From: a virus
Direction: 5' to 3' (one strand)
IMG/VR virus record: IMGVR_UViG_3300045988_155952
Span: 1-37,486 of that record
Length of the DNA: 37,486 nt
Shown here: one piece after another, positions 120 to 37,486 of the stretch
Layout of the letters: the number at the start of each line of letters is the position of its first letter
How positions within the stretch are numbered: the first letter of the stretch is position 1
The notes under the pieces: model-generated
Databases searched by the model: none
What the model saw: only the letters and a program-made list of their open reading frames with translations
What the model was told of the DNA's origin: nothing
Made by a program: the position numbers and the translations under genes

Positions 120-657
120 TTTTCAAAATTCTACAGAGTTTAAATATATAGGTTTTGTAAGTGATTTAAATAAGTTGCCCAATTTATATGATGGAAATAA
201 AGTTACTTTATCTAGATATGGTTCTAATACTCCTGGTGCACCAAATACATCTGGAGGATGGATGCTTACATTTAAAGATAAGAAGGATAATTCAAACACA
301 TATACTGTTAATATAGCATTTTCTATTGGTAATACAGTAAATCATATTTATAAACAAACCTTTAATAACTCAATTAATTTGTGGAACACTTGGGTTCAAT
401 TGACGGGTATAACCATTGCTGGACACAATGTTAATATAAATAGACCTATTACTGAATATCCGATAGATACTGTTACGATTAATAGAATACCTAGTGGAAG
501 CTCTGAGATAACTAATAATAAAGCAGCTGTATACAAAACATATAGATTTAGCAATGATGAATATTCTTATCAAGAGATAGAGGATTTAGCTACGCATGCT
601 AAAAGATATAGAAACTGGAGTGTTAGTATAAATAACTGGGGTTCAATAATTCAGTGA
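1..657 (+). CDS. Tail fibre / receptor-binding protein, C-terminal part (same gene as 36222..37486, read across the junction)
   Basis: Frame 1 is open from nt 1 to the TGA at 655-657. Position 37368 (= nt 1) is in frame with the ATG at 36222, giving one ORF of 1,803 nt (600 aa). The GTG at 76 in the ORF track is an internal codon. Confidence 0.85.
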   Translation, partial: KSRNIKIVTSSVARSLIGNSIEYGTVNDSNHIIVTNYGKIFQNSTEFKYIGFVSDLNKLPNLYDGNKVTLSRYGSNTPGAPNTSGGWMLTFKDKKDNSNTYTVNIAFSIGNTVNHIYKQTFNNSINLWNTWVQLTGITIAGHNVNINRPITEYPIDTVTINRIPSGSSEITNNKAAVYKTYRFSNDEYSYQEIEDLATHAKRYRNWSVSINNWGSIIQ

Positions 658-671
658 AATAAATAAAGGAA

Positions 672-699
672 TTACCAAAAAAAAGTAGAATAGTATAGT
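672..699 (+). promoter_or_regulatory. Candidate sigma-A-type promoter for the RES-domain gene
   Basis: TTACCA (672-677), a 16-nt spacer, then TATAGT (694-699). It lies in the 68-nt gap after the tail-fibre stop, about 27 nt upstream of the ATG at 726. Confidence 0.45.
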
Positions 700-725
700 A
701 AATAGTTCTATGAGGTGAAGTAAAT

Positions 726-1520
726 ATGAATAAACCTGTGTTATTTGGACATTCAACATTTGTAAAAAGTGATGATTTAATATTAAATAGTATTGATCCA
801 TTAGACTTATTGAAAAGACTAGAATACTTTAGAAAAATAGATAAGAAAAATATTGATATAAATGAATTACAGAAATACATTTGTAGTACAATAGTTGCTC
901 ATTGCAATTTTTATAGAGAATATAAAAAAGGAATTAGCTTGTATAGATTAAGGGAAGTTGAATCTGAATATTATACTGAAAAGAAGGATTTAATTTATCC
1001 TCCTTCAAATAAAAGCACGTTAGGAAGATTAAATAGGAAAAATCAAAGTATGTTGTATGTATCTTTAGATTCGATAACTCCATTTTATGAGATTAAAAAT
1101 CTTAAAAGTGGTGATAAATTATGCTTAATAGAGTATGAGATAATTTCTGATGAATTTGTAGCTTCTGTAATAGGTGAAGAGGGTGAATTCCCAGAAAACT
1201 ATCTCAATCATACTGGTTTGATAAATCATAAGATTATTGAACAATTTTTATGCACAGAGATTACCAAAGAAGTAGGAAATGAATATAAATATATTTACAA
1301 TATAATAAACTTTTTAGCCGATACTTATTATAATATTCCAAAAACTATAGGGTATGAGTATCCTTCAGTGGTAAATAACAATAAGATTAATTTAGCAATT
1401 TTCCCAAAGGATGCAGATGATAAGATTAGAATAAAAGAAGTGAAAAACATAATATTCGAAGGATTTGTAGATGAAATTCCCAAATATGAGATTATATCAA
1501 CGAATAATTCTATTAGATAG
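726..1520 (+). CDS. RES-domain protein (NAD+-utilising toxin fold) with an unassigned N-terminal region of about 95 aa
   Basis: The RES hallmarks occur in order: LYRLRE, then GRLNRKNQSMLYVSLDSITPFYEI (Arg and Glu), then GYEYPSVVNNNKINLAIFP (Ser). The RBS GAGGTG sits upstream of the ATG. Confidence 0.8.
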   Translation: MNKPVLFGHSTFVKSDDLILNSIDPLDLLKRLEYFRKIDKKNIDINELQKYICSTIVAHCNFYREYKKGISLYRLREVESEYYTEKKDLIYPPSNKSTLGRLNRKNQSMLYVSLDSITPFYEIKNLKSGDKLCLIEYEIISDEFVASVIGEEGEFPENYLNHTGLINHKIIEQFLCTEITKEVGNEYKYIYNIINFLADTYYNIPKTIGYEYPSVVNNNKINLAIFPKDADDKIRIKEVKNIIFEGFVDEIPKYEIISTNNSIR

Positions 1521-1560
1521 TAATTGACCGAAAGGACGACATAATTAAATAAAAGATTTA

Positions 1561-1596
1561 AGAGAGATTTAGAGGAATTCTAAGTCTCTTTTTTAA
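1561..1596 (+). terminator. Intrinsic terminator after the RES gene
   Basis: AGAGA..TTAGA / TCTAA..TCTCT interrupted stem, followed by TTTTTT. Confidence 0.6.
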
Positions 1597-1618: not shown

Positions 1619-1822
1619 ATGGAAAGTGAATTAATTAAAGTAATGACTAATCAAGGGGCATGGGCGTTGTTATTTTTATTTATGCTTATTTATGTGCTTA
1701 AAACTACAGGGGAAAGAGAAAAAAGATATCAAGGATTATTAGATACGTTGGCTGAAAAATTCAATGTAGTTGAAAATATCGAAGATGATGTGAAGGAAAT
1801 AAAAAATAAATTAAACAAATAA
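1619..1822 (+). CDS. bhlA: BhlA/UviB-family holin-like protein
   Basis: 67 aa with an N-terminal TM segment (GAWALLFLFMLIYVL) followed by ...EREKRYQGLLDTLAEKFNVVE, typical of the BhlA/UviB family. It lies directly upstream of the lysis genes. Confidence 0.75.
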   Translation: MESELIKVMTNQGAWALLFLFMLIYVLKTTGEREKRYQGLLDTLAEKFNVVENIEDDVKEIKNKLNK

Positions 1823-1839
1823 AAGGGAGAGTGTTTTTA

Positions 1840-2028
1840 ATGAAAGAAAGAATTGTAAAAAAGCTAACAAGTGCTAGATTTTTAATGGCTATAATATTCA
1901 CATTAGTTATAAGCTACATGGCTATAACTGGAACTATAAGTGGGGAGCAGTTCGTGCCATTAGCAACAATGGTAGTTGCTTTCTATTTTAGCAGAGATAA
2001 AGAACAAAATCTTAATCAAGAGGGGTAA
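1840..2028 (+). CDS. Small two-TM holin
   Basis: The ATG at 1840 lies 9 nt after the RBS AAGGGAGA; the GTG at 1831 in the ORF track has no spacing to that RBS. 62 aa with two hydrophobic segments and a charged C-terminus, immediately upstream of the endolysin. Confidence 0.7.
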   Translation: MKERIVKKLTSARFLMAIIFTLVISYMAITGTISGEQFVPLATMVVAFYFSRDKEQNLNQEG

Positions 2029-2038
2029 TATCCCCTCT
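2019..2038 (+). promoter_or_regulatory. GC-rich stem-loop AGAGGGG-N6-CCCCTCT overlapping the holin stop
   Basis: Perfect 7-bp stem followed by ATTCTATTTT. The same stem sequence recurs at 18833..18852. Confidence 0.5.
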
Positions 2039-2061
2039 ATTCTATTTTAAGGAGGGATTTT

Positions 2062-2955
2062 ATGTTTGGAATAGATATAAGTAATCATAATAGTTCTATA
2101 GATTTCAATAAAGTTAAAGCTGATGGAGTGGATACTATAATAATGAAAGCCACAGAGGGCGGAAGTTATTTAGACCCAATGCTAGAAGAAAATTATAAAC
2201 AAGCTTTAGATAAGGGATTTAATATTGGATTTTATCATTTCCTTTACGAGTTATCAGATGCAAAAAGACAAGCTAACTGGTTTTGGCAGAATATTAAGGA
2301 TAAAGAATTTAATGTGATTCCAGTTTTAGATGCAGAAAGAAATAACAATAATAAGTTTAATAGGGAAACTTATACTAAGTTTTGTTTAGACTTCCTAGAA
2401 GAATTTAAAAGGTTAAGTGGTATAGAATGTATTCTTTATACTTACACCAGTTTTGCTAATAGCTTAATGGATAGCAGATTAAAGTCTTATAAGCTATGGG
2501 AAGCTAATTACTATACCAATAATGGTCAAAGACATAATAGAAAAGGATTGACTAATATATGGGGCAAGGACATTGTAGGCCACCAGTATACTTCTACAGG
2601 ACGAGTTAATGGTATTGTAACGAATTGCGATCTAAACGACTTTGAGGAAAGTATTCTATTAAACAAGGGGGAAAAGCCACAAGAAAGCAAACCAGTAAAT
2701 AAGGAGGAATCAAAATTGTTAGAACAATGTAAAAGGCAAGTATTAAACTACGGAAATAAAGGAACATATGTATACTTGGCACAAAGTGCTATGAAAGCAT
2801 TAGGATTATATAATGGAGTTGTAGACGGTTCATATGGTCCTTCTAAGGGAAACGGAAGCTTTTATCAAACAGTCGTAAATTTAAATTCTAAGTTAGGATA
2901 TAAAAACGATTCTAGATTAGGACCAGCTTGCTGGACTTATATACTAACCAAGTAG
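2062..2955 (+). CDS. Endolysin: GH25 muramidase with a C-terminal peptidoglycan-binding (PG_binding_1-like) domain
   Basis: The N-terminus FGIDISNHNSSIDFNKVKADGVDTIIMKATEG...FYHF is typical of Glyco_hydro_25. The C-terminus GNKGTYVYLAQSAMKALGLYNGVVDGSYGP resembles PG_binding_1. Confidence 0.9.
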   Translation: MFGIDISNHNSSIDFNKVKADGVDTIIMKATEGGSYLDPMLEENYKQALDKGFNIGFYHFLYELSDAKRQANWFWQNIKDKEFNVIPVLDAERNNNNKFNRETYTKFCLDFLEEFKRLSGIECILYTYTSFANSLMDSRLKSYKLWEANYYTNNGQRHNRKGLTNIWGKDIVGHQYTSTGRVNGIVTNCDLNDFEESILLNKGEKPQESKPVNKEESKLLEQCKRQVLNYGNKGTYVYLAQSAMKALGLYNGVVDGSYGPSKGNGSFYQTVVNLNSKLGYKNDSRLGPACWTYILTK

Positions 2956-2991: not shown

Positions 2992-3036
2992 AAAGCCAGT
3001 GGGTAGGGAAATTCCTTGCTTACTGGCTTTTTTTAT
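2992..3036 (+). terminator. Intrinsic terminator ending the lysis operon
   Basis: AAAGCCAGT (2992-3000) pairs with ACTGGCTTT (3022-3030), followed by a T-run. Confidence 0.8.
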
Positions 3037-3095: not shown

Positions 3096-3293
3096 TTGGT
3101 TAAGAATAAACTTAAAGAAATAAGAATGAAAGAATACATGATGTCTCAAAAGGATTTTGCAACTTTTTTAGATGTTCAAGTTAAAGTTTATTGGAGTTGG
3201 GAAAACAATAAAAGCAAACCAACACTAGAAAAGGCACTTGAGATTGCTAATAAATTAAATAAAAATATTATGGATATATGGTACTTACAATAG
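3096..3293 (+). CDS. XRE-family HTH transcriptional regulator (65 aa)
   Basis: TTG start after AAGGTGGTG. The sequence LKEIRMKEYMMSQKDFATFLDVQVKVYWSWENNKSKP fits the HTH_3 pattern. Confidence 0.75.
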   Translation: MVKNKLKEIRMKEYMMSQKDFATFLDVQVKVYWSWENNKSKPTLEKALEIANKLNKNIMDIWYLQ

Positions 3294-3433
3294 TGAGTAC
3301 TTTTTTTATGCAATTAAAACCATGTCTAATAGAAAAAATCTAAAATAAAACAAATAAAATCTAATATTTTAGGAAACTTTTTATCCTTTAGTACATACAT
3401 ATAAACTATAAAGCAAGACAAAAGAGGTTAAAG

Positions 3434-3601
3434 TTGATTGTTGACTTAATTGAATTGCAAGAAGTAGAGATTAACAAGGTGGTTAATTACATTAAAGAAG
3501 TAGGTAAAAGTAGAATCTATGCAGATACGATTGAATACATTGTATTTTTAAAAGACGGAGGTATGTACTCTATATTCTTAGAGCAGCCTAAACTATATTG
3601 A
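3434..3601 (+). CDS. Hypothetical 55-aa protein, translationally coupled to the FtsK-like gene
   Basis: TTG start 5 nt after the RBS AAAGAGGT. Its TGA stop (3599-3601) overlaps the TTG start at 3598 of the next ORF. It is below the ORF-track length cut-off. Confidence 0.45.
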   Translation: MIVDLIELQEVEINKVVNYIKEVGKSRIYADTIEYIVFLKDGGMYSIFLEQPKLY

Positions 3602-4554
3602 TTTTATATATTAAGTTATTAGCAATGTTCCTATCTGCGTATGGCTCTATTAATTTACTTCTTCCAGAAGAATTTAAAGATAAGCATAAGATAAAAAGTA
3701 AGTTTAGATATTTTATAAAAGAAAAAGACTTAATTACAAAAGTTACAGATAAAGTTACTTTGGAAGATATAGAGATTTATAAATGGGGATTTAAAGCTAT
3801 ATTAGATATAAGTAAGATATGTGCATATGAGGACATTGAAAAACATTCAGATTATCTTAAACAGATGTTTAGGGCTAAAGAAGTAAACATGATAAATAAG
3901 AATGGAACTGCTGAAATTGAAGTATTCAACAAAGATATAGGTGATATTAAATACGAATATGTAGATATGTCGCCCTATGAACTTATATTTGGCTATAACA
4001 AAAAAGGTGAACCAATAACAGTAAATATGAAGAAAACTCCACATATAGGGGTGCAAGGTGCATCTAATAGTGGTAAAAGTAAAATGGTTGAACTAGCCTT
4101 AAGAAACTTAAAGAATAAGGCAGACGTTATTATGCTTAATTGTTTTGAAGATGATTTTATAAGCATACCGGGAAGAAGGATAAACAATAATGAGGATATA
4201 TTAGAATACTTAGAAAGTATTATAGAAGAACCATATATAAGAGAAAGACCACTATATCTATTGTTAGATGAGTTAAATGTACTTGGTAAAGATAAAAAGA
4301 TTAATAAGGCTATTATGGATGTTTTAGCACAAGCTAGACACTTCAATATCTTTCTTATTGCACTTGGCCAAAGTTTATTGAAAGAAAATTGTCCATATAA
4401 ACAGTTATTTAACGTTAGAGTTACATTCAGAGCTATAGATAGAAGCAGTATAAGTGCCTTTTTAGGATGTACTGTAGAAGATACAAGGCTAAATCAAAGG
4501 GAGTTTATTTGTTATTCAGATAGCATTTATAGGGGGAAGTCTTACTTACTATAA
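3598..4554 (+). CDS. FtsK/SpoIIIE/TcpA-family DNA-translocase-like ATPase with an N-terminal TM segment
   Basis: N-terminal hydrophobic helix; Walker A GASNSGKS; Walker B LYLLLDELNVL; AQARHFNIFLIALGQS resembles the FtsK RAxGIHLIxATQ motif. Confidence 0.75.
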   Translation: MILYIKLLAMFLSAYGSINLLLPEEFKDKHKIKSKFRYFIKEKDLITKVTDKVTLEDIEIYKWGFKAILDISKICAYEDIEKHSDYLKQMFRAKEVNMINKNGTAEIEVFNKDIGDIKYEYVDMSPYELIFGYNKKGEPITVNMKKTPHIGVQGASNSGKSKMVELALRNLKNKADVIMLNCFEDDFISIPGRRINNNEDILEYLESIIEEPYIRERPLYLLLDELNVLGKDKKINKAIMDVLAQARHFNIFLIALGQSLLKENCPYKQLFNVRVTFRAIDRSSISAFLGCTVEDTRLNQREFICYSDSIYRGKSYLL

Positions 4555-4559
4555 GTATT

Positions 4560-4715
4560 ATGTTAAGCGAATTGGTCGAAGCTTTCGTGTAGCAAGTGGA
4601 ATGCGTAGTCTTGGAATACAACTTGTTGTTTACAAGCGAAGCATGGAGCGAAGTGGAACGAAAGCTGAGAGCAATCAGGCGAAGCCTAAACTTGATAGTA
4701 GTGGGGTAATTCAAA
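4560..4715. repeat. GC-enriched intergenic region with about 6 copies of a (A/G)GCGAAG-like iteron and small hairpins; candidate oriT/dso
   Basis: Iteron copies: aagcgaa (4565), gtcgaagc (4575), aagcgaagc (4634), gagcgaagt (4646), aacgaaagc (4657), ggcgaagcc (4678). Hairpins: CGAA-gct-TTCG and CTTGT-tgttt-ACAAG. There is no ORF, and the composition clearly departs from the AT-rich flanks. Confidence 0.5.
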
Positions 4716-4718
4716 TCA

Positions 4719-5519
4719 ATGAAAAAAATCGAAAATCTATATAACTTAAAAATAATTACTAGTGGTGATAGATTGGAAATCTACAAGATGAATAATTATT
4801 TAGCAAGAACGGATTTTGAGCGCGAAATCGAAAAATCACAAGATACCAAAGATGATGAAAAAGGTATTCAATCCTTAAAAGATAGAAAAGCTACATTAAA
4901 TAAGGCTAGAAATAACATTATGAGATTAATAAAGTCAAATCCAGATATGACCACCTTTATTACTTTAACATTTAGTAATGTTCCAGACTATAAAAAAAGC
5001 AAACAGTTGTTAAATATATTTTTTACTAAGCTTAGGAGGGATTATACAAATTTAAAGTATATTTGGGTACTTGAATTAGGAGAGAAGAATAAAAGGTTAC
5101 ATTATCATCTATTGACTAATGTTTTAGTTCCTATAAATTTAAGTGGAAACAATGAAACAAAATCATTTGAACATAAGATTTATGAAGAACAATTTAGAAA
5201 ATCTTATTGGGAACATGGCTTTGTAGATATTAGAGATTTAGAACAGGAAGATAATACTAATATAGCTTTATATGTAAGTGCTTATATAGTAAAAAGCTTA
5301 TTAGATATAAACATTGACGGCAGAGTATATGGATATAGTCATAAAACAATAGATCGTCCAGTTGAAACCAAGCTTTATTCAAATTGCAGCATAGAAGAGT
5401 TATTAAATCATTTCAAAGAGTATAAGATTGATTATACAAATAGTTATAAAATTGGCTTTACAGATTGGCAAGGCGAACGAAAAGGGACAGTAACCTATTT
5501 CGATATGAGTAAAAAATAA
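4719..5519 (+). CDS. HUH rolling-circle replication initiator / relaxase-like protein
   Basis: Motif 1 is TFITLTF, motif 2 (HUH) is LHYHLLTN, and motif 3 is ALYVSAYIVKS (catalytic Tyr). The motif order is that of phiX174 gpA / Microviridae VP4-like Reps. Confidence 0.8.
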   Translation: MKKIENLYNLKIITSGDRLEIYKMNNYLARTDFEREIEKSQDTKDDEKGIQSLKDRKATLNKARNNIMRLIKSNPDMTTFITLTFSNVPDYKKSKQLLNIFFTKLRRDYTNLKYIWVLELGEKNKRLHYHLLTNVLVPINLSGNNETKSFEHKIYEEQFRKSYWEHGFVDIRDLEQEDNTNIALYVSAYIVKSLLDINIDGRVYGYSHKTIDRPVETKLYSNCSIEELLNHFKEYKIDYTNSYKIGFTDWQGERKGTVTYFDMSKK

Positions 5520-5540
5520 TTATATAAGGAGAGTTAAATT

Positions 5541-5834
5541 ATGAAAATAAATAATGTAATGTGTTTAGTTAGTTCTAGAGAGGAAAAAATAAATAAGAAT
5601 ACTAATTTGCCTTATTGGACAACAAGTATAGTCACTTTAGATGGTGATGGTACTGCTTTAAATATTACAGTAAAAGAGAGGGAATTGGCAGAAAAGTTAA
5701 AACCTATGTTTAAATACAACCTTAATTTAAGCTTATCAAACAGTCAATATGGTATGAGAGTTGAGTTAGCAGCATTAAATCCAATAGTTAAAGAATTAGG
5801 GTCTATAATAGACGGAATACCACAAGGAAAATAA
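5541..5834 (+). CDS. Hypothetical 97-aa protein (beta-rich; possible OB-fold accessory factor)
   Basis: Good RBS (AAGGAGAG), and the gene follows Rep closely. No diagnostic motif, so the function is speculative. Confidence 0.6.
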   Translation: MKINNVMCLVSSREEKINKNTNLPYWTTSIVTLDGDGTALNITVKERELAEKLKPMFKYNLNLSLSNSQYGMRVELAALNPIVKELGSIIDGIPQGK

Positions 5835-5894
5835 TTGACAATTTATGTCTGTATTATACAATATAATATATAGATAATAAAGGGAGATGATAGA

Positions 5895-6095
5895 ATGGGA
5901 GAAGTTCAACAAGGAATACAAGCATTTTTAGGGGTAGGCGCATTTGTAGCTCTAATATCAATAGTTTCATTTATTGTATTTATGGTTTGTACAATTTGTA
6001 ATGCAATAAACATACGTAAGATAGCTGTTAATGTAGAAAAAATAGCAAATAGAAAAAGAAAAAAAGAAGAGTTACCACAGCCACAAAAAGACTAG
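5895..6095 (+). CDS. Small single-pass membrane protein with a basic C-terminal tail
   Basis: RBS AAGGGAGATG. The TM segment is GVGAFVALISIVSFIVFMVCTIC, followed by ...NRKRKKEELPQPQKD. Confidence 0.6.
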   Translation: MGEVQQGIQAFLGVGAFVALISIVSFIVFMVCTICNAINIRKIAVNVEKIANRKRKKEELPQPQKD

Positions 6096-6117
6096 GATAA
6101 ATAAATCCTAGTCTTTT
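6086..6117. terminator. Bidirectional intrinsic terminator between convergent genes
   Basis: AAAAGACTAGGAT (6086-6098), loop aaataa, then ATCCTAGTCTTTT (6105-6117): a perfect 13-bp stem whose outer A:T pairs supply the A-run and T-run. Confidence 0.85.
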
Positions 6118-6392
6118 CTTATATACTTATAATATCCATTTATGCAGTGATTAATATATGGTTCTAAATCCTTGTTTATGGCATAATTGGTTTTGATTTG
6201 CGATCTACCTACTAGATAATCTATAGTAACGTTATAATAATCAGCAAGTGCAATAAGCACCTCAACATCTGGATTGCGTTCTCCTGTTTCCCAATACGAG
6301 TATGCTTGCCTACTAACATTTAATAATTTTGCTATATCTTCTTGTCGTAGACCTTTCTCCGTTCGTAATATTTTAAAATTGTTCTTATTCAT
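6108..6392 (-). CDS. XRE-family HTH transcriptional regulator (94 aa)
   Basis: ILRTEKGLRQEDIAKLLNVSRQAYSYWETGERNPDVEVLIALADYYNVTIDYLVG is a classic HTH_3 pattern. The ATG at 6392 is preferred because the GAGGTG RBS overlaps the upstream GTG at 6401. Confidence 0.8.
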   Translation of the reverse strand: MNKNNFKILRTEKGLRQEDIAKLLNVSRQAYSYWETGERNPDVEVLIALADYYNVTIDYLVGRSQIKTNYAINKDLEPYINHCINGYYKYIRKD

Positions 6393-6509
6393 TAAAAACA
6401 CCTCAAGAATATTTTACCAAACAGAGAAATTTTGTCTGCCATTGCAACAAAAAGTGGAATTTTATTAAATAATATTAGGTATAAATAACATTAAGTGGCT
6501 AAGAACACG

Positions 6510-6683: not shown

Positions 6684-6731
6684 AATATCATTAATGAATT
6701 GCATGGGTGTCCTTTGAATACATAACCGATA

Positions 6732-8219
6732 CTATGTAAATTCTATGTCAATACTATCGTCAAATGGGTTGTAAATCAGTTTGTTAAATATAATTCTCAC
6801 CTTATTCCTTTTTTCTTTATTATCTTTTATATTTCTAAATTCTCTTATAGCTTGTTGCAATTCTGAATCATTTTTCTTGGTAATTGCATCAAGTTGATTT
6901 ATTCTTAATTCATCAATTTTGGCTTCTAGTTCAATATTTTCAGAAGTTAATTCTTCTATTTTTCTTGTCAGTGGTTCAGCTGCTGCATTACTTAATAGCA
7001 TTAATTTTTCCACCAAATTATCAATAGCTTTCTTATTATCATCTATAGACTTTAACAGTATATCTATTTCGTTTTGCTTGTTATCTACTACCATATTACC
7101 TTTATATTTTTTAAACTCTCTATCGTCCTCTAAATTATTAATAAGTATACTTACTTTTTCTTCTATCGTTTCTGCATTAACGTATTTATTATTTTCACAC
7201 TTAACCTTGTCTTTATTTATTCCCATTTCATTACTTGCCCTATTTATCCTACTAGAGCAAACATAATAAGTGTTTTTACCGCTATTTACCAAAACGTACT
7301 TAGAGCCACAGAAAGGGCAATATAGTATTTCTGTAAGCCAATAAGTTTTGCTTTCTCTCTTAGTGGCTTTATCTTTATTCTTATCTAACAGTAAATTAAC
7401 TTTTAAAAACAATTCAGCATCTATCGGTGCGTTGTGTTTGCTTACTATTAGAGTTGGATAGTCAGAAGTTTTGCCATAAGTCATATAGCCCTTTTTATTA
7501 GCTTTTCCAACAACCTCAAAACCTTTATTAAGTAAATAATCCGAAACTCTTTCATCAGACTTACAGTAAACGGGATTTCTTAATATCTTCCCTAAGCTAC
7601 TTCTAGTCGTTAAAGTCTTAATGCCATTATCTAAAAGATATTTTTGTGTAGCATATAGAGAACCTAGTTCCAAATATTTATCAAACATTAATTTTATTAT
7701 TTTATCATCTTCAATTTTTAAAAAGCTTTTACCTTCTTTCTTTTCTATAGTGCAACCAAAAGGAACAAAACCACCAGTAAAACAACCTTTTTTAGCTAAA
7801 CTTATCATATTATCTTTTACTCTTTGTCTTATGTTTTCTCGTTCCATATCAGCAAATGCAGATAACATTATCATCATCATTTTGCCGCCTGGAGTGCTAG
7901 GATCAAATCCTTCGCTTATAGATATTAACTTTACATTGTACTTTTCTAATTCTTCATAAATCTTAAAAAAATCTACTATATTCCTCGATATTCTATCAAC
8001 CTTATAAATAGCCACTATATCAAATTTACCTAACTTAATCAAAGACATTAATCTTTTAAAACTAGGTCGATTGGTATTTCCTCCGCTAAATCCTTCATCT
8101 TCAAATATTTCAAACTCGTTTTCGCCTTGAAAGTATTTTTTACATAATTGTATCTGCGTTTCTATACTCTCACTATTTTCTACCGCAACAGATTTTCTGG
8201 TATATATCGCAATTCTCAT
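6732..8219 (-). CDS. int: Large serine recombinase (phage integrase)
   Basis: The N-terminus MRIAIYTRKSV...(Ser nucleophile) has the resolvase catalytic fold and is followed by a recombinase domain. There is also a Cys cluster (CPFCGSKY...YYVCSS) and a C-terminal coiled-coil. 495 aa. Confidence 0.92.
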   Translation of the reverse strand: MRIAIYTRKSVAVENSESIETQIQLCKKYFQGENEFEIFEDEGFSGGNTNRPSFKRLMSLIKLGKFDIVAIYKVDRISRNIVDFFKIYEELEKYNVKLISISEGFDPSTPGGKMMMIMLSAFADMERENIRQRVKDNMISLAKKGCFTGGFVPFGCTIEKKEGKSFLKIEDDKIIKLMFDKYLELGSLYATQKYLLDNGIKTLTTRSSLGKILRNPVYCKSDERVSDYLLNKGFEVVGKANKKGYMTYGKTSDYPTLIVSKHNAPIDAELFLKVNLLLDKNKDKATKRESKTYWLTEILYCPFCGSKYVLVNSGKNTYYVCSSRINRASNEMGINKDKVKCENNKYVNAETIEEKVSILINNLEDDREFKKYKGNMVVDNKQNEIDILLKSIDDNKKAIDNLVEKLMLLSNAAAEPLTRKIEELTSENIELEAKIDELRINQLDAITKKNDSELQQAIREFRNIKDNKEKRNKVRIIFNKLIYNPFDDSIDIEFT

Positions 8220-22414: not shown

Positions 22415-22488
22415 GGGAGTGTAGTTTAATGGTAAAACGATAGTCTCCAAAACTATTGATTGAGGTTCAATTCCTCATACTCTCGCCA
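22415..22488 (+). tRNA. tRNA-Trp: tRNA-Trp (anticodon CCA), CCA-encoded
   Basis: Manual cloverleaf. The acceptor is GGGAGTG/TACTCTC (2 G:U) and the D stem is GTTT/AAAC. The anticodon stem is ATAGT/ACTAT with loop CTCCAAA. The T arm is TGAGG-TTCAATT-CCTCA, with discriminator G plus CCA. Confidence 0.88.
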
Positions 22489-22628: not shown

Positions 22629-22716
22629 GGAAAGTTGTCTGAGAGGTTTAAGGTGCTTGTTTGCTAAACAAGTGATGTGAAAGCATCCACAGGTTCGAAT
22701 CCTGTACTTTCCGCCA
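22629..22716 (+). tRNA. tRNA-Ser: tRNA-Ser (anticodon GCU), class II with a long variable arm, CCA-encoded
   Basis: The acceptor is GGAAAGT/ACTTTCC and the D-loop is GAGAGGTTTAA. The anticodon stem is CTTGT/ACAAG with loop TTGCTAA. The variable arm is GATG-tgaaag-CATC and the T arm is ACAGG-TTCGAAT-CCTGT. The D stem is weak (one mismatch). Confidence 0.8.
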
Positions 22717-36067: not shown

Positions 36068-36222
36068 TAAGTGAATTTTATGTAGAGTGCTTAGCAAAGA
36101 AAATTATAAATAAAGAAATAAATCTCTACACTAATAATCCTTTCTGCCTTGAAGATATAAAAAAAGAGGAATATATAGAACCAGTTAAGATGAAAATAGA
36201 GGAAATGGGGGGAACTCGATAA
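36064..36222 (+). CDS. Hypothetical 52-aa protein between Tal and the tail fibre
   Basis: ATGA overlap with the Tal stop and TAATG overlap with the tail-fibre start. It is below the ORF-track cut-off. Confidence 0.5.
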   Translation: MISEFYVECLAKKIINKEINLYTNNPFCLEDIKKEEYIEPVKMKIEEMGGTR

Positions 36223-37486
36223 TGGTTTATCCAAGTAATATAACTTTAAACTTAAATACACGATATGTGTTGCCGATTCCGACCGCACAACAAGGGGACA
36301 CCGCAAGAGTATTAACTTTTAACATACTCAATAATGGTGTTCCTTTTAGTTTGGTTGGAAAAACAGTTAGGACAAAGATAGTTAAGCCAGACAATACGAA
36401 ATGTTACAACGACTTGACTATTACCAATGCAACTAATGGGGAATGCATTTTAAAGCTTACCAATCAAATCTTAGCGGTAGCTGGAAAGGTTAATTGTCAG
36501 CTTGAAATAAAAGAAGGGGAAGAACTTCTAAGTACAATTATATTTTCAATAGATGTTGAACCTAGTATAGATATAAGTGGAGCGGTAGAAAGCACTAATG
36601 AGTTTACTGCTTTATTAAACGGAATTATAAAGTTAGATGAATGGGATAAATATTTCAAAGAAACTAGTGGACAAATAGAACAAAAGTATACTGTAGAATT
36701 AAATAATATTAAGTCGTCCTTGGAAGAAAGTAAAGATATAAATATGTCTAAATTCTTAGAGATGTCTAATCCAACAGGAATAGAAGAAACTTGTATAAAC
36801 TTTACAGATGATGATGGAAGAAGAACTTTTTCAACAGTTTTAAGACCTATTTTTGAAGAAAAAGGAGTTAGGTGTAATTTGGCAATTAACCCCGCTTATG
36901 TTGGTGACGAAAATAAATATACTTGGGAAGAACTTAAACAGTTACAAAGCGAGGGGTATGAGATAGTATCTCATGGATATGATCATAAAGATTTTGATAC
37001 AATGACAGATGTACAATTAATAGAAGATTGTGAAAAAGTTAAATCACTATTTAATCAGCATGGGATTGACTATAAAAATATTTGTGTATTACCTAACAAT
37101 AAACAAGGTAATACAAATATAATTAAAAAATATTATAATTTCTGCTATGGAAATACTACTACAGGAAATTCCCATGCAACACTTCCTTTGGATTCAATGA
37201 GAATAGCAAGATGTAACATAGAAGGATATACATTAGAACAATTAAAAGCTAGAGTAGATAATGCGATAGCCAATAAGGCTTATCTTACTTTTATGATACA
37301 TTCTTGGATGGATGTTTTTCAGACAGAACAGAAACAACAAGATATAAAAGATTTGATAGATTACATTAAATCAAGAAATATTAAAATAGTTACATCAAGT
37401 GTTGCAAGAAGTTTAATAGGAAATAGTATAGAATATGGTACTGTGAATGATAGCAACCATATTATTGTTACTAATTACGGAAAGAT
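36222..37486 (+). CDS. Tail fibre / receptor-binding protein, N-terminal part: BppU-like N-domain plus NodB/CE4 polysaccharide-deacetylase domain (continues at nt 120 after the overlap)
   Basis: The ATG is at 36222 and no stop occurs before the window end, which is why the ORF track omits it. The N-terminus YVLPIPTAQQGDTARVLTFNILNNGVPFSL..GKTV is BppU-like. CE4 motifs: FTDDDGRR (Asp-Asp), VSHGYDH (H-x3-H) and LTFMIHSW (LxH). Confidence 0.8.
   Translation, partial: MVYPSNITLNLNTRYVLPIPTAQQGDTARVLTFNILNNGVPFSLVGKTVRTKIVKPDNTKCYNDLTITNATNGECILKLTNQILAVAGKVNCQLEIKEGEELLSTIIFSIDVEPSIDISGAVESTNEFTALLNGIIKLDEWDKYFKETSGQIEQKYTVELNNIKSSLEESKDINMSKFLEMSNPTGIEETCINFTDDDGRRTFSTVLRPIFEEKGVRCNLAINPAYVGDENKYTWEELKQLQSEGYEIVSHGYDHKDFDTMTDVQLIEDCEKVKSLFNQHGIDYKNICVLPNNKQGNTNIIKKYYNFCYGNTTTGNSHATLPLDSMRIARCNIEGYTLEQLKARVDNAIANKAYLTFMIHSWMDVFQTEQKQQDIKDLIDYIKSRNIKIVTSSVARSLIGNSIEYGTVNDSNHIIVTNYGK
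37368..37486. repeat. Terminal overlap copy B, identical to 1..119
   Basis: Same comparison as copy A. The overlap lies inside a coding region, so it reflects circular closure or permutation, not a functional terminal repeat. Confidence 0.97.

Follow-up and report, generated by a model that had tools for sequence, protein, structure and literature searches.

What does a lone RES-domain gene do between the tail fibre and the lysis genes of a temperate phage? The gene in question lies in the IMG/VR virus record IMGVR_UViG_3300045988_155952, which was analysed over its whole length of 37,486 nucleotides (nt; hereafter the window), and it is an ATG-initiated open reading frame (ORF) of 264 amino acids (aa) plus stop at positions 726..1520 of the plus strand. 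With moderate confidence we read its product as a compact standalone RES enzyme, carried as accessory cargo by a temperate Clostridium siphophage, that may protect lysogens by abortive infection through depletion of nicotinamide adenine dinucleotide (NAD+). An earlier note, made from the sequence alone, had suggested single-gene defence by abortive infection, and this is now the best-supported reading of the locus, by homology to the aRES proteins, by the conservation of six active-site residues and by the presence of relatives in defence islands.

The aRES proteins are standalone RES-domain proteins of defence islands (Osterman et al., Sorek laboratory, Jan 2026; bioRxiv 10.64898/2026.01.28.702374). 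On infection they convert NAD+ to nicotinamide and ADP-ribose-1''-phosphate and arrest growth, and they protected E. coli from phages (bioRxiv 10.64898/2026.01.28.702374). The view of the earlier note that neither an orphan RES defence gene nor a lytic RES effector was a described system has been overtaken by this report of January 2026. The gene in the window belongs to a short, prophage-borne, aRES-like RES family, and its principle is already known from aRES.

Family and fold of the RES protein

Judged from homologues that reach an expectation value (E) of 5e-47 and from the 2278 cluster representatives that make up its family at E <= 1e-3, the ORF is a genuine gene and not a chance reading frame. 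The identical protein was found in the same gene arrangement on at least 23 contigs. The family was delimited with HMMER by searching exhaustively through 1.84 billion cluster representatives (clusters at 50 % identity), among which 668 proteins scored at E <= 1e-10 and 39 at E <= 1e-30; its members are mostly about 290-300 aa long (median 294 aa, with 107 of 163 members below 300 aa) and align near their full length, including the N-terminus. A word-indexed search returned only a handful of homologues at 37-44 % identity and profiles as queries added few more, while a narrower family alignment used as query recovered eight genome loci and nine viral loci.

The earlier note had called the ORF a RES-domain gene and had proposed comparison with Pfam and structure prediction as checks. 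The Pfam comparison came out divided. The protein's own score against the Pfam RES profile (PF08808) is 19.1 bits at a cut-off of 23.2 (E 0.0014), while the profile matches four of five close homologues and 65 of 136 family members, with a best E of 1.1e-12. Since its own score is below threshold, the RES identity of the protein is based on the family matches, on the predicted fold and on the profile alignment to aRES, and with this basis the assignment stands.

The other profile collections gave little. Against NCBIfam Res_ParT_toxin the protein scored 12.2 bits at a cut-off of 110, and a weak match to this model was seen in five of the 136 family members; all its matches in PHROGs and NCBIfam were far below significance or the curated cut-off, and no PADLOC model (PADLOC-DB v2) matched the protein or its family. 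Searches of 50,697 phage genomes by tblastn with the protein and by megablast with the region gave no match. No RES chain was found by sequence in the PDB, using profiles of five and of 136 sequences, 25 concatenated family RES cores and aRES as queries.

The structure prediction bore out the assignment. The AlphaFold model built on the 136-sequence alignment is confident, with a predicted local distance difference test (pLDDT) of 92 and a predicted template modelling score (pTM) of 0.88; it supersedes a run on five sequences that was unusable at a pLDDT of 50. When the model was compared with the PDB by Foldseek, ranks 1-8 were all RES toxins (probability 0.99-1.00, target-normalised template modelling score 0.43-0.58), among them NatT (8qnl), VPA0770 (8gug), ParT (6d0i/6d0h) and the P. 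putida Res protein (6gw6/9r35), and they were followed by a diphtheria-toxin homologue and other proteins of the ADP-ribosyltransferase (ART) fold. The RES/ART fold of the 264-aa protein is thereby established at the level of a structural model.

Using hhalign, the family profile aligned to the aRES of E. coli UC5 with a probability of 96.8 % (E 3e-10) in the profile-to-sequence and of 97.9 % (E 4e-13) in the profile-to-profile comparison, pairing residues 66-227 of the RES protein with aRES residues 174-354.

Catalytic residues and domain architecture

In this alignment R74, R76, R101, Y111, E122 and S214 stand opposite aRES R182, R184, R215, Y225, E236 and S334, so that the arginines, tyrosine, glutamate and serine of the RES active site are in register. 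The same six aRES residues were changed in the mutants of Table S4 of the aRES study (R182A, R184A, R215A, Y225A, E236A, S334A), where point mutations of predicted active-site residues abolished defence (bioRxiv 10.64898/2026.01.28.702374). Eight positions of the RES core are conserved in the 136-sequence alignment: R74, R101, Y111 and E122 are invariant, and R76, N103, S214 and N222 are kept in more than 90 % of the sequences. The three motifs that the earlier note had quoted for the RES domain are all present, namely LYRLRE at residues 72-77, GRLNRKNQSMLYVSLDSITPFYEI at residues 100-123 and GYEYPSVVNNNKINLAIFP at residues 209-227.

Three parts of the protein can be distinguished. An N-terminal helical region (residues 1-61, positions 726..908 of the plus strand) contains helices at residues 25-37 and 45-55 in the AlphaFold model. 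It is followed by the RES/ART catalytic core (residues 62-227, 909..1406, same strand), supported by the hhalign alignment to aRES, Foldseek and conservation, with a helical insert of about 40 aa at residues ~162-202. The protein ends in a beta-hairpin that lies outside the aRES alignment (residues 228-264, 1407..1517, same strand), with modelled strands at 234-248 and 251-260. The modelled beta strands at residues 62-66 and 71-77 are the first strands of the RES core, and the N-terminal part outside the core is consequently about 60 aa of two or three helices rather than the 95 or so that had been assumed. No Pfam, PADLOC or NCBIfam domain was found in the N-terminal region of the protein; the region is family-specific, being covered by most family matches in the HMMER search.

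Within the helical insert the protein is unusual. Residues 178-191 (1257-1298) read EITKEVGNEYKYIY where the family consensus is EFTxxVGxGTEYLY, and the substitutions F179I, G186E and E188K depart from the strongest non-catalytic motif of the family. Positions 186 and 188 both deviate in 13 of 163 sequences including the window protein (~8 %).

These three substitutions, together with the sub-threshold Pfam score and the loss of a small ORF that accompanies close homologues (see below), could suggest a catalytically dead or decaying RES remnant without current function. We consider this very improbable, however, since the frame of 264 codons is intact in phage DNA of 27 % G+C, the sequence is identical on the 23 or more contigs and in two phage backbones, all six residues essential in aRES are retained, the fold is confidently predicted, and the motif deviation recurs elsewhere in the family.

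Relatives in defence islands and in prophages

The distant members of the family are found mostly outside recognisable phage modules, and some of them stand next to transposases, an AAA_21 ATPase or toxin-antitoxin pairs of the PIN and YafQ kinds. For 12 distant members, the neighbouring genes up to 5 kb away (96 in all) matched 100 PADLOC models, a figure to be taken qualitatively, and these included type IIG restriction-modification (RM) systems of the MmeI type, AbiLi, AriA (PARIS), RmrA, DrmMI and PDC systems. In qualitative terms, such neighbours would be the same signature that led to aRES. One arrangement may be described in its own right: in locus L009 (1290-5462) a distant RES gene lies between a complete MmeI-type IIG RM gene and a fragment comprising the target-recognition-domain end and the C-terminal domain of MmeI, and it looks as if it had been inserted at a site of target-recognition-domain swapping.

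In the window the setting is that of a phage. The first 119 base pairs (bp; 1-119) are identical to the last 119 (37368-37486), which indicates that the phage genome is complete and either circularly closed or terminally redundant. With the window circular, the gene 5' of the RES gene is a junction-spanning tail fibre of 600 aa (36222..37486 then 120..657, plus strand; BppU_N, Polysacc_deac_1 and DUF2334 by translation and Pfam), whose stop codon is separated from the RES start codon by 68 nt without an ORF. Directly downstream lies a lysis cassette at 1619..2955 of the plus strand, composed of a BhlA holin (1619-1822; ORF and Pfam), a 62-aa membrane protein (1840-2028; ORF) and a GH25 endolysin (2062-2955; ORF and Pfam), all on that strand, and a strong terminator (2992-3030) follows the cassette.

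The earlier note had placed the gene in a slot between tail and lysis genes, and this holds for the closest Clostridium prophages, namely a siphovirus-type prophage (L026) and the myovirus-type prophage of Clostridium sp. M14 (L027), both of which carry the RES homologue at the tail-to-lysis junction. Other homologues are found elsewhere in or after the tail module. The Niallia homologue (L036) lies inside the tail module, the Terribacillus homologue (L029) follows lysogenic-conversion-like genes and is succeeded by two unannotated genes and then a holin, and further homologues stand beside an integrase gene (L035) and beside a Bro-N gene (L038). In the Terribacillus locus (L029 6202-8011), genes for a Wzy_C-like polymerase and a hexapeptide acetyltransferase precede the RES homologue, the acetyltransferase gene overlapping the RES start by 11 nt.

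The mobility of the gene is evident from a second phage backbone (L004). The capsid, tape-measure, baseplate and tail genes of this phage are different, and only the segment 36709..1574 of the window (36709-37486 plus 1-1574; L004 8617-10849) is common to both, at ~99 % identity. The shared segment consists of the C-terminal part of the tail fibre, which holds the polysaccharide deacetylase and the receptor-binding part, and of the RES gene; its start at 36709 places a recombination junction inside the tail-fibre gene. The presence of the same gene in two backbones shows it to be exchangeable accessory cargo and, with the siphovirus- and myovirus-type prophages described above, it is shuffled between otherwise unrelated phages in the manner of a moron.

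A linked small ORF in close homologues

The neighbours of the RES gene, the tail fibre and the holin, are as the earlier note had described, and no Xre-type antitoxin partner is found. In the precomputed Pfam annotation, which covers nearly the whole phage, no Xre/COG5642-type antitoxin is adjacent to the RES gene or encoded elsewhere; those HTH_3 proteins that the phage encodes are either short or of the repressor type, and a COG5642-type toxin-binding domain is not recorded for any gene. The same annotation holds no Macro-domain phosphatase and no NAD+-salvage genes (NARP) in the phage.

A conserved antitoxin ORF linked to the gene had been named beforehand as a finding that would speak against an antitoxin-less device, and this finding has been made in part. 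A conserved ORF of ~56 aa is located directly upstream of the RES gene in six of eight locus types of close homologues; neither the window nor the Terribacillus prophage contains it. Its consensus is MTGKELINxIKxxNLED...SDxWxGNxY, with invariant tryptophan and glycine residues, and it has no Pfam domain. It is directly upstream of the RES homologue in L038 (6769-6939), L026 (7769-7939), L018 (5706-5879) and L035 (6778-6948), divergent in L036 (6793-6945) and truncated in the locus type L027/L017/L028 (L027 7780-7911); in Clostridium sp. M14 (L027) it is interrupted beside an intact RES gene. When viral and metagenome collections were scanned, every full-length copy that turned up lay on a contig whose RES gene was already known. 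The distant members of the family have no conserved small gene upstream.

These observations raise the alternative that the RES protein is the toxin of a two-gene cassette and that its 56-aa partner, either an antitoxin or an inhibitor for phage self-immunity like aRad1, has been lost here, so that the window copy is an orphan tolerated by weak expression or attenuation. The linkage in most locus types and the confinement of the small ORF to RES-bearing contigs argue for such a cassette, as do the existence of small phage-encoded plugs of the RES active site (aRad1) and the deviation of the window protein at three near-invariant family positions. Several points oppose it: the missing or truncated partner in three of the lineages just described, including one with an intact RES gene; the stability of the orphan arrangement in the window on at least 23 contigs from several samples; the distant members without a small upstream gene; and the intact catalytic residues of the window protein. 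We regard this alternative as unlikely. Being absent from the window and the Terribacillus prophage and interrupted in Clostridium sp. M14, the 56-aa ORF cannot be an obligate antitoxin, and it remains a linked, putative partner. A relationship of this ORF to aRad1 was considered and rejected (hhalign probability 0.7 %), and aRad1 is not encoded in the window or in the homologous loci examined.

One may also speculate that both components belong together in a wider scheme. The uncatalogued family (at least 2278 clusters at 50 % identity) would then consist of short aRES-like NAD+ phosphorylases whose N-terminal helices and C-terminal hairpin together form a minimal sensor, and its prophage form would be a cassette in which the 56-aa protein is a built-in inhibitor that silences the NADase during the phage's own lytic cycle, the phage of the window having dispensed with it. 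This combined proposal is doubtful as a whole; if true, it would unite defence and anti-defence in one module.

Expression of the RES gene

The signals around the gene support only part of the proposal that it is an autonomous moron with its own promoter, ribosome-binding site and terminator. A ribosome-binding site, GAGGTG, is indeed present at 712..717 of the plus strand, 8 nt 5' of the ATG, as read from the sequence. A candidate intrinsic terminator, a hairpin with a T run, lies between the RES gene and the holin (1560..1596, plus strand). Its hairpin (1560-1592) has 14 pairs including two G-U pairs and a 5-nt loop, a run of six T (1589-1594) overlaps the 3' arm, and the predicted RNA fold has an energy of -18 kcal/mol (z = -2.7); it is unlisted by a simple terminator scan, and we consider it plausible. 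The promoter did not hold up. The site TTACCA-16-TATAGT exists (672..699, plus strand; 9 of 12 matches) and is at chance level, as 15 promoter-like sites were found in 3 kb versus 18.4 +/- 3.9 expected in shuffles. Promoter scans of two homologous loci were no more informative in DNA so rich in A and T. A GTAGAAT-like element is shared upstream of several RES genes, which could be due to common ancestry and was not counted as evidence. Rfam matched only two tRNAs in the phage and no regulatory RNA near the RES gene.

The scan detected no terminator in the interval that follows the tail-fibre gene, and transcripts of the late operon are likely to read through into the RES gene. With no upstream terminator and a promoter-like site not above chance, most transcription of the gene may come from the late operon, and a role in the lytic cycle would fit this equally well. 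The protein could accordingly be an effector of the phage itself, made late with the tail and lysis proteins and acting by NAD+ depletion or by ADP-ribosylation as in ParT. Its benefit to the phage would lie in stopping host metabolism, in weakening host immunity that relies on NAD+ or in keeping competitors out. Besides the position in the late operon, this alternative draws on the common strand and slot of the gene in several phages, on the homologue within the tail module itself in the Niallia prophage, on the joint transfer of the gene with the receptor-binding part of the tail fibre, and on the ParT-type RES proteins among the fold matches (6d0h/6d0i), which modify proteins. We nevertheless find it improbable. 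The relatives outside phages, in islands of restriction, Abi and toxin-antitoxin genes, point to a host-protective role, the tblastn search of sequenced phage genomes yielded no homologue, the hairpin with its T run parts the RES gene from the holin, and aRES, the nearest relative that has been studied by experiment, is directed against phages.

NAD+ depletion as a proposed defence of lysogens

The favoured reading, a standalone RES enzyme that defends the lysogen, can be put as a sequence of steps. The protein would split NAD+ with phosphate into nicotinamide and ADP-ribose-1''-phosphate, like aRES, MbcT and NatT. As long as the lysogen is healthy, regions of the enzyme outside its catalytic core (the ~60-aa helical N-terminus, the C-terminal hairpin or both) would keep it off, and an infecting (superinfecting) phage would switch it on. 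The ensuing collapse of NAD+ would arrest the infected cell and thereby protect the lysogen population, which would amount to abortive infection by a prophage gene.

A number of observations weigh against this proposal. PF18870, the N-terminal domain of aRES, was matched neither in the RES protein (E <= 10) nor in 136 family members (E <= 0.01), and the N-terminal 67 residues aligned to aRES N-termini with an hhalign probability of 1 %; the sensing mechanism of aRES is therefore not transferable to this protein. RES enzymes can be ADP-ribosyltransferases, as in ParT, so that the NAD+ reaction is one that we infer, and the activity, toxicity and expression of the protein and its family are predictions from sequence and model. 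To these must be added the sub-threshold Pfam score, the missing PADLOC models, the three substitutions in the conserved non-catalytic motif, the small ORF linked to close homologues and the possible transcription with the late operon.

If the enzyme is active, RES-mediated NAD+ depletion would extend to a shorter architecture, to Gram-positive anaerobes and to prophage carriers. NAD+-depleting immunity would then be more widespread than counted, as neither PADLOC-DB v2 nor the published criteria for finding aRES pick up this family, which has 668 representatives at E <= 1e-10. With a 60-aa N-terminal segment and a RES core, the protein is small enough to recommend itself as a minimal system in which to study how RES enzymes are held off and triggered, and the 56-aa neighbour that some loci have lends itself to testing whether phages encode inhibitors of their own RES gene.

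The phage and its host

The phage has Clostridium paraputrificum or a close relative as its host and was found as an integrated prophage in chromosomes (L003, L039). A large serine recombinase of 495 aa (6732-8219, minus strand) integrates the prophage into a gene for a B12-binding radical S-adenosylmethionine (SAM) protein of the C. paraputrificum-like host. The radical-SAM gene is thereby split into fragments of 187 and 382 aa, intact homologues having 551 aa. The attP core lies at about 6705-6719, and the evidence for integration is found at 6705-8219 of the window, at L003 6691-7839 and at L039 1789-3846.

Between the endolysin gene and the attachment site (3096-6401) the phage carries a module that resembles a plasmid or an integrative and conjugative element (ICE). 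It comprises an HTH_3 protein (3096-3293), an FtsK/SpoIIIE-like ATPase (3598-4554), a rolling-circle-type Rep protein (REP_ORF2-G2P; 4719-5519) and a divergent HTH_3 repressor (6108-6401, minus strand). Modules with FtsK and Replic_Relax are likewise located after the lysis genes in L026 and L029. The plasmid- or ICE-like module could be a hitch-hiking element or an alternative mode of replication. The two tRNAs matched by Rfam, tRNA-Trp(CCA) (22415-22488) and tRNA-Ser(GCT) (22629-22716), are encoded just upstream of the large terminase gene.

Comparison with known systems

Three known systems invite comparison. As a prophage moron the gene fits in being a small accessory gene between tail and lysis modules, in having its own candidate hairpin terminator and in being shuffled between backbones; it differs in that its promoter-like site is found only at chance level.

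The toxins of RES-Xre pairs (MbcT/MbcA, Res/Xre of P. putida, NatT/NatR, ParT/ParS and VPA0770/0769) share the RES/ART fold and are the best PDB matches of the model. In MbcT, residues R27, R47, Y58, E69 and S126 have been described, of which R27, R47 and Y58 are essential for toxicity (PMC6436930). The window protein has R74, R101, Y111, E122 and S214 in similar spacing (R-27-R-10-Y-11-E), a likeness of spacing only and not of an alignment. In contrast to these toxins, the gene of the window has no Xre/COG5642 antitoxin upstream, and its protein has extra N-terminal helices, a helical insert of ~40 aa and a C-terminal hairpin and shows no detectable sequence match to RES chains of the PDB. 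Having no Xre partner and scoring 12 bits at the cut-off of 110 on Res_ParT_toxin, the protein is not a toxin of a RES-Xre toxin-antitoxin system.

The third system is aRES. Like aRES, the window protein is a single-gene, antitoxin-less product with a non-catalytic N-terminal part and a RES domain; the two proteins are homologous throughout the latter, the helical insert included, the six residues mutated in aRES are all conserved here, and relatives of the window protein sit in defence islands. The two differ in their N-termini, which in aRES comprise about 175 aa with a Cys-rich region and PF18870 and here an unrelated helical segment of ~60 aa, and in their location, aRES being found in a chromosomal defence island and the window gene in a prophage at the tail-lysis junction. 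A 56-aa ORF linked upstream in many close homologues of the window gene further sets them apart from aRES. As defined, aRES proteins are standalone, have an N-terminal PF18870 domain (HEPN/RES-NTD1), measure 300-600 aa and are enriched in defence islands (bioRxiv 10.64898/2026.01.28.702374), and the three tested so far are all PF18870-type and enterobacterial (bioRxiv 10.64898/2026.01.28.702374). The protein described here is standalone, but with no PF18870 domain and a length of 264 aa it falls outside aRES as defined, and it belongs to a large RES family distinct from aRES, with an N-terminal module of another kind.

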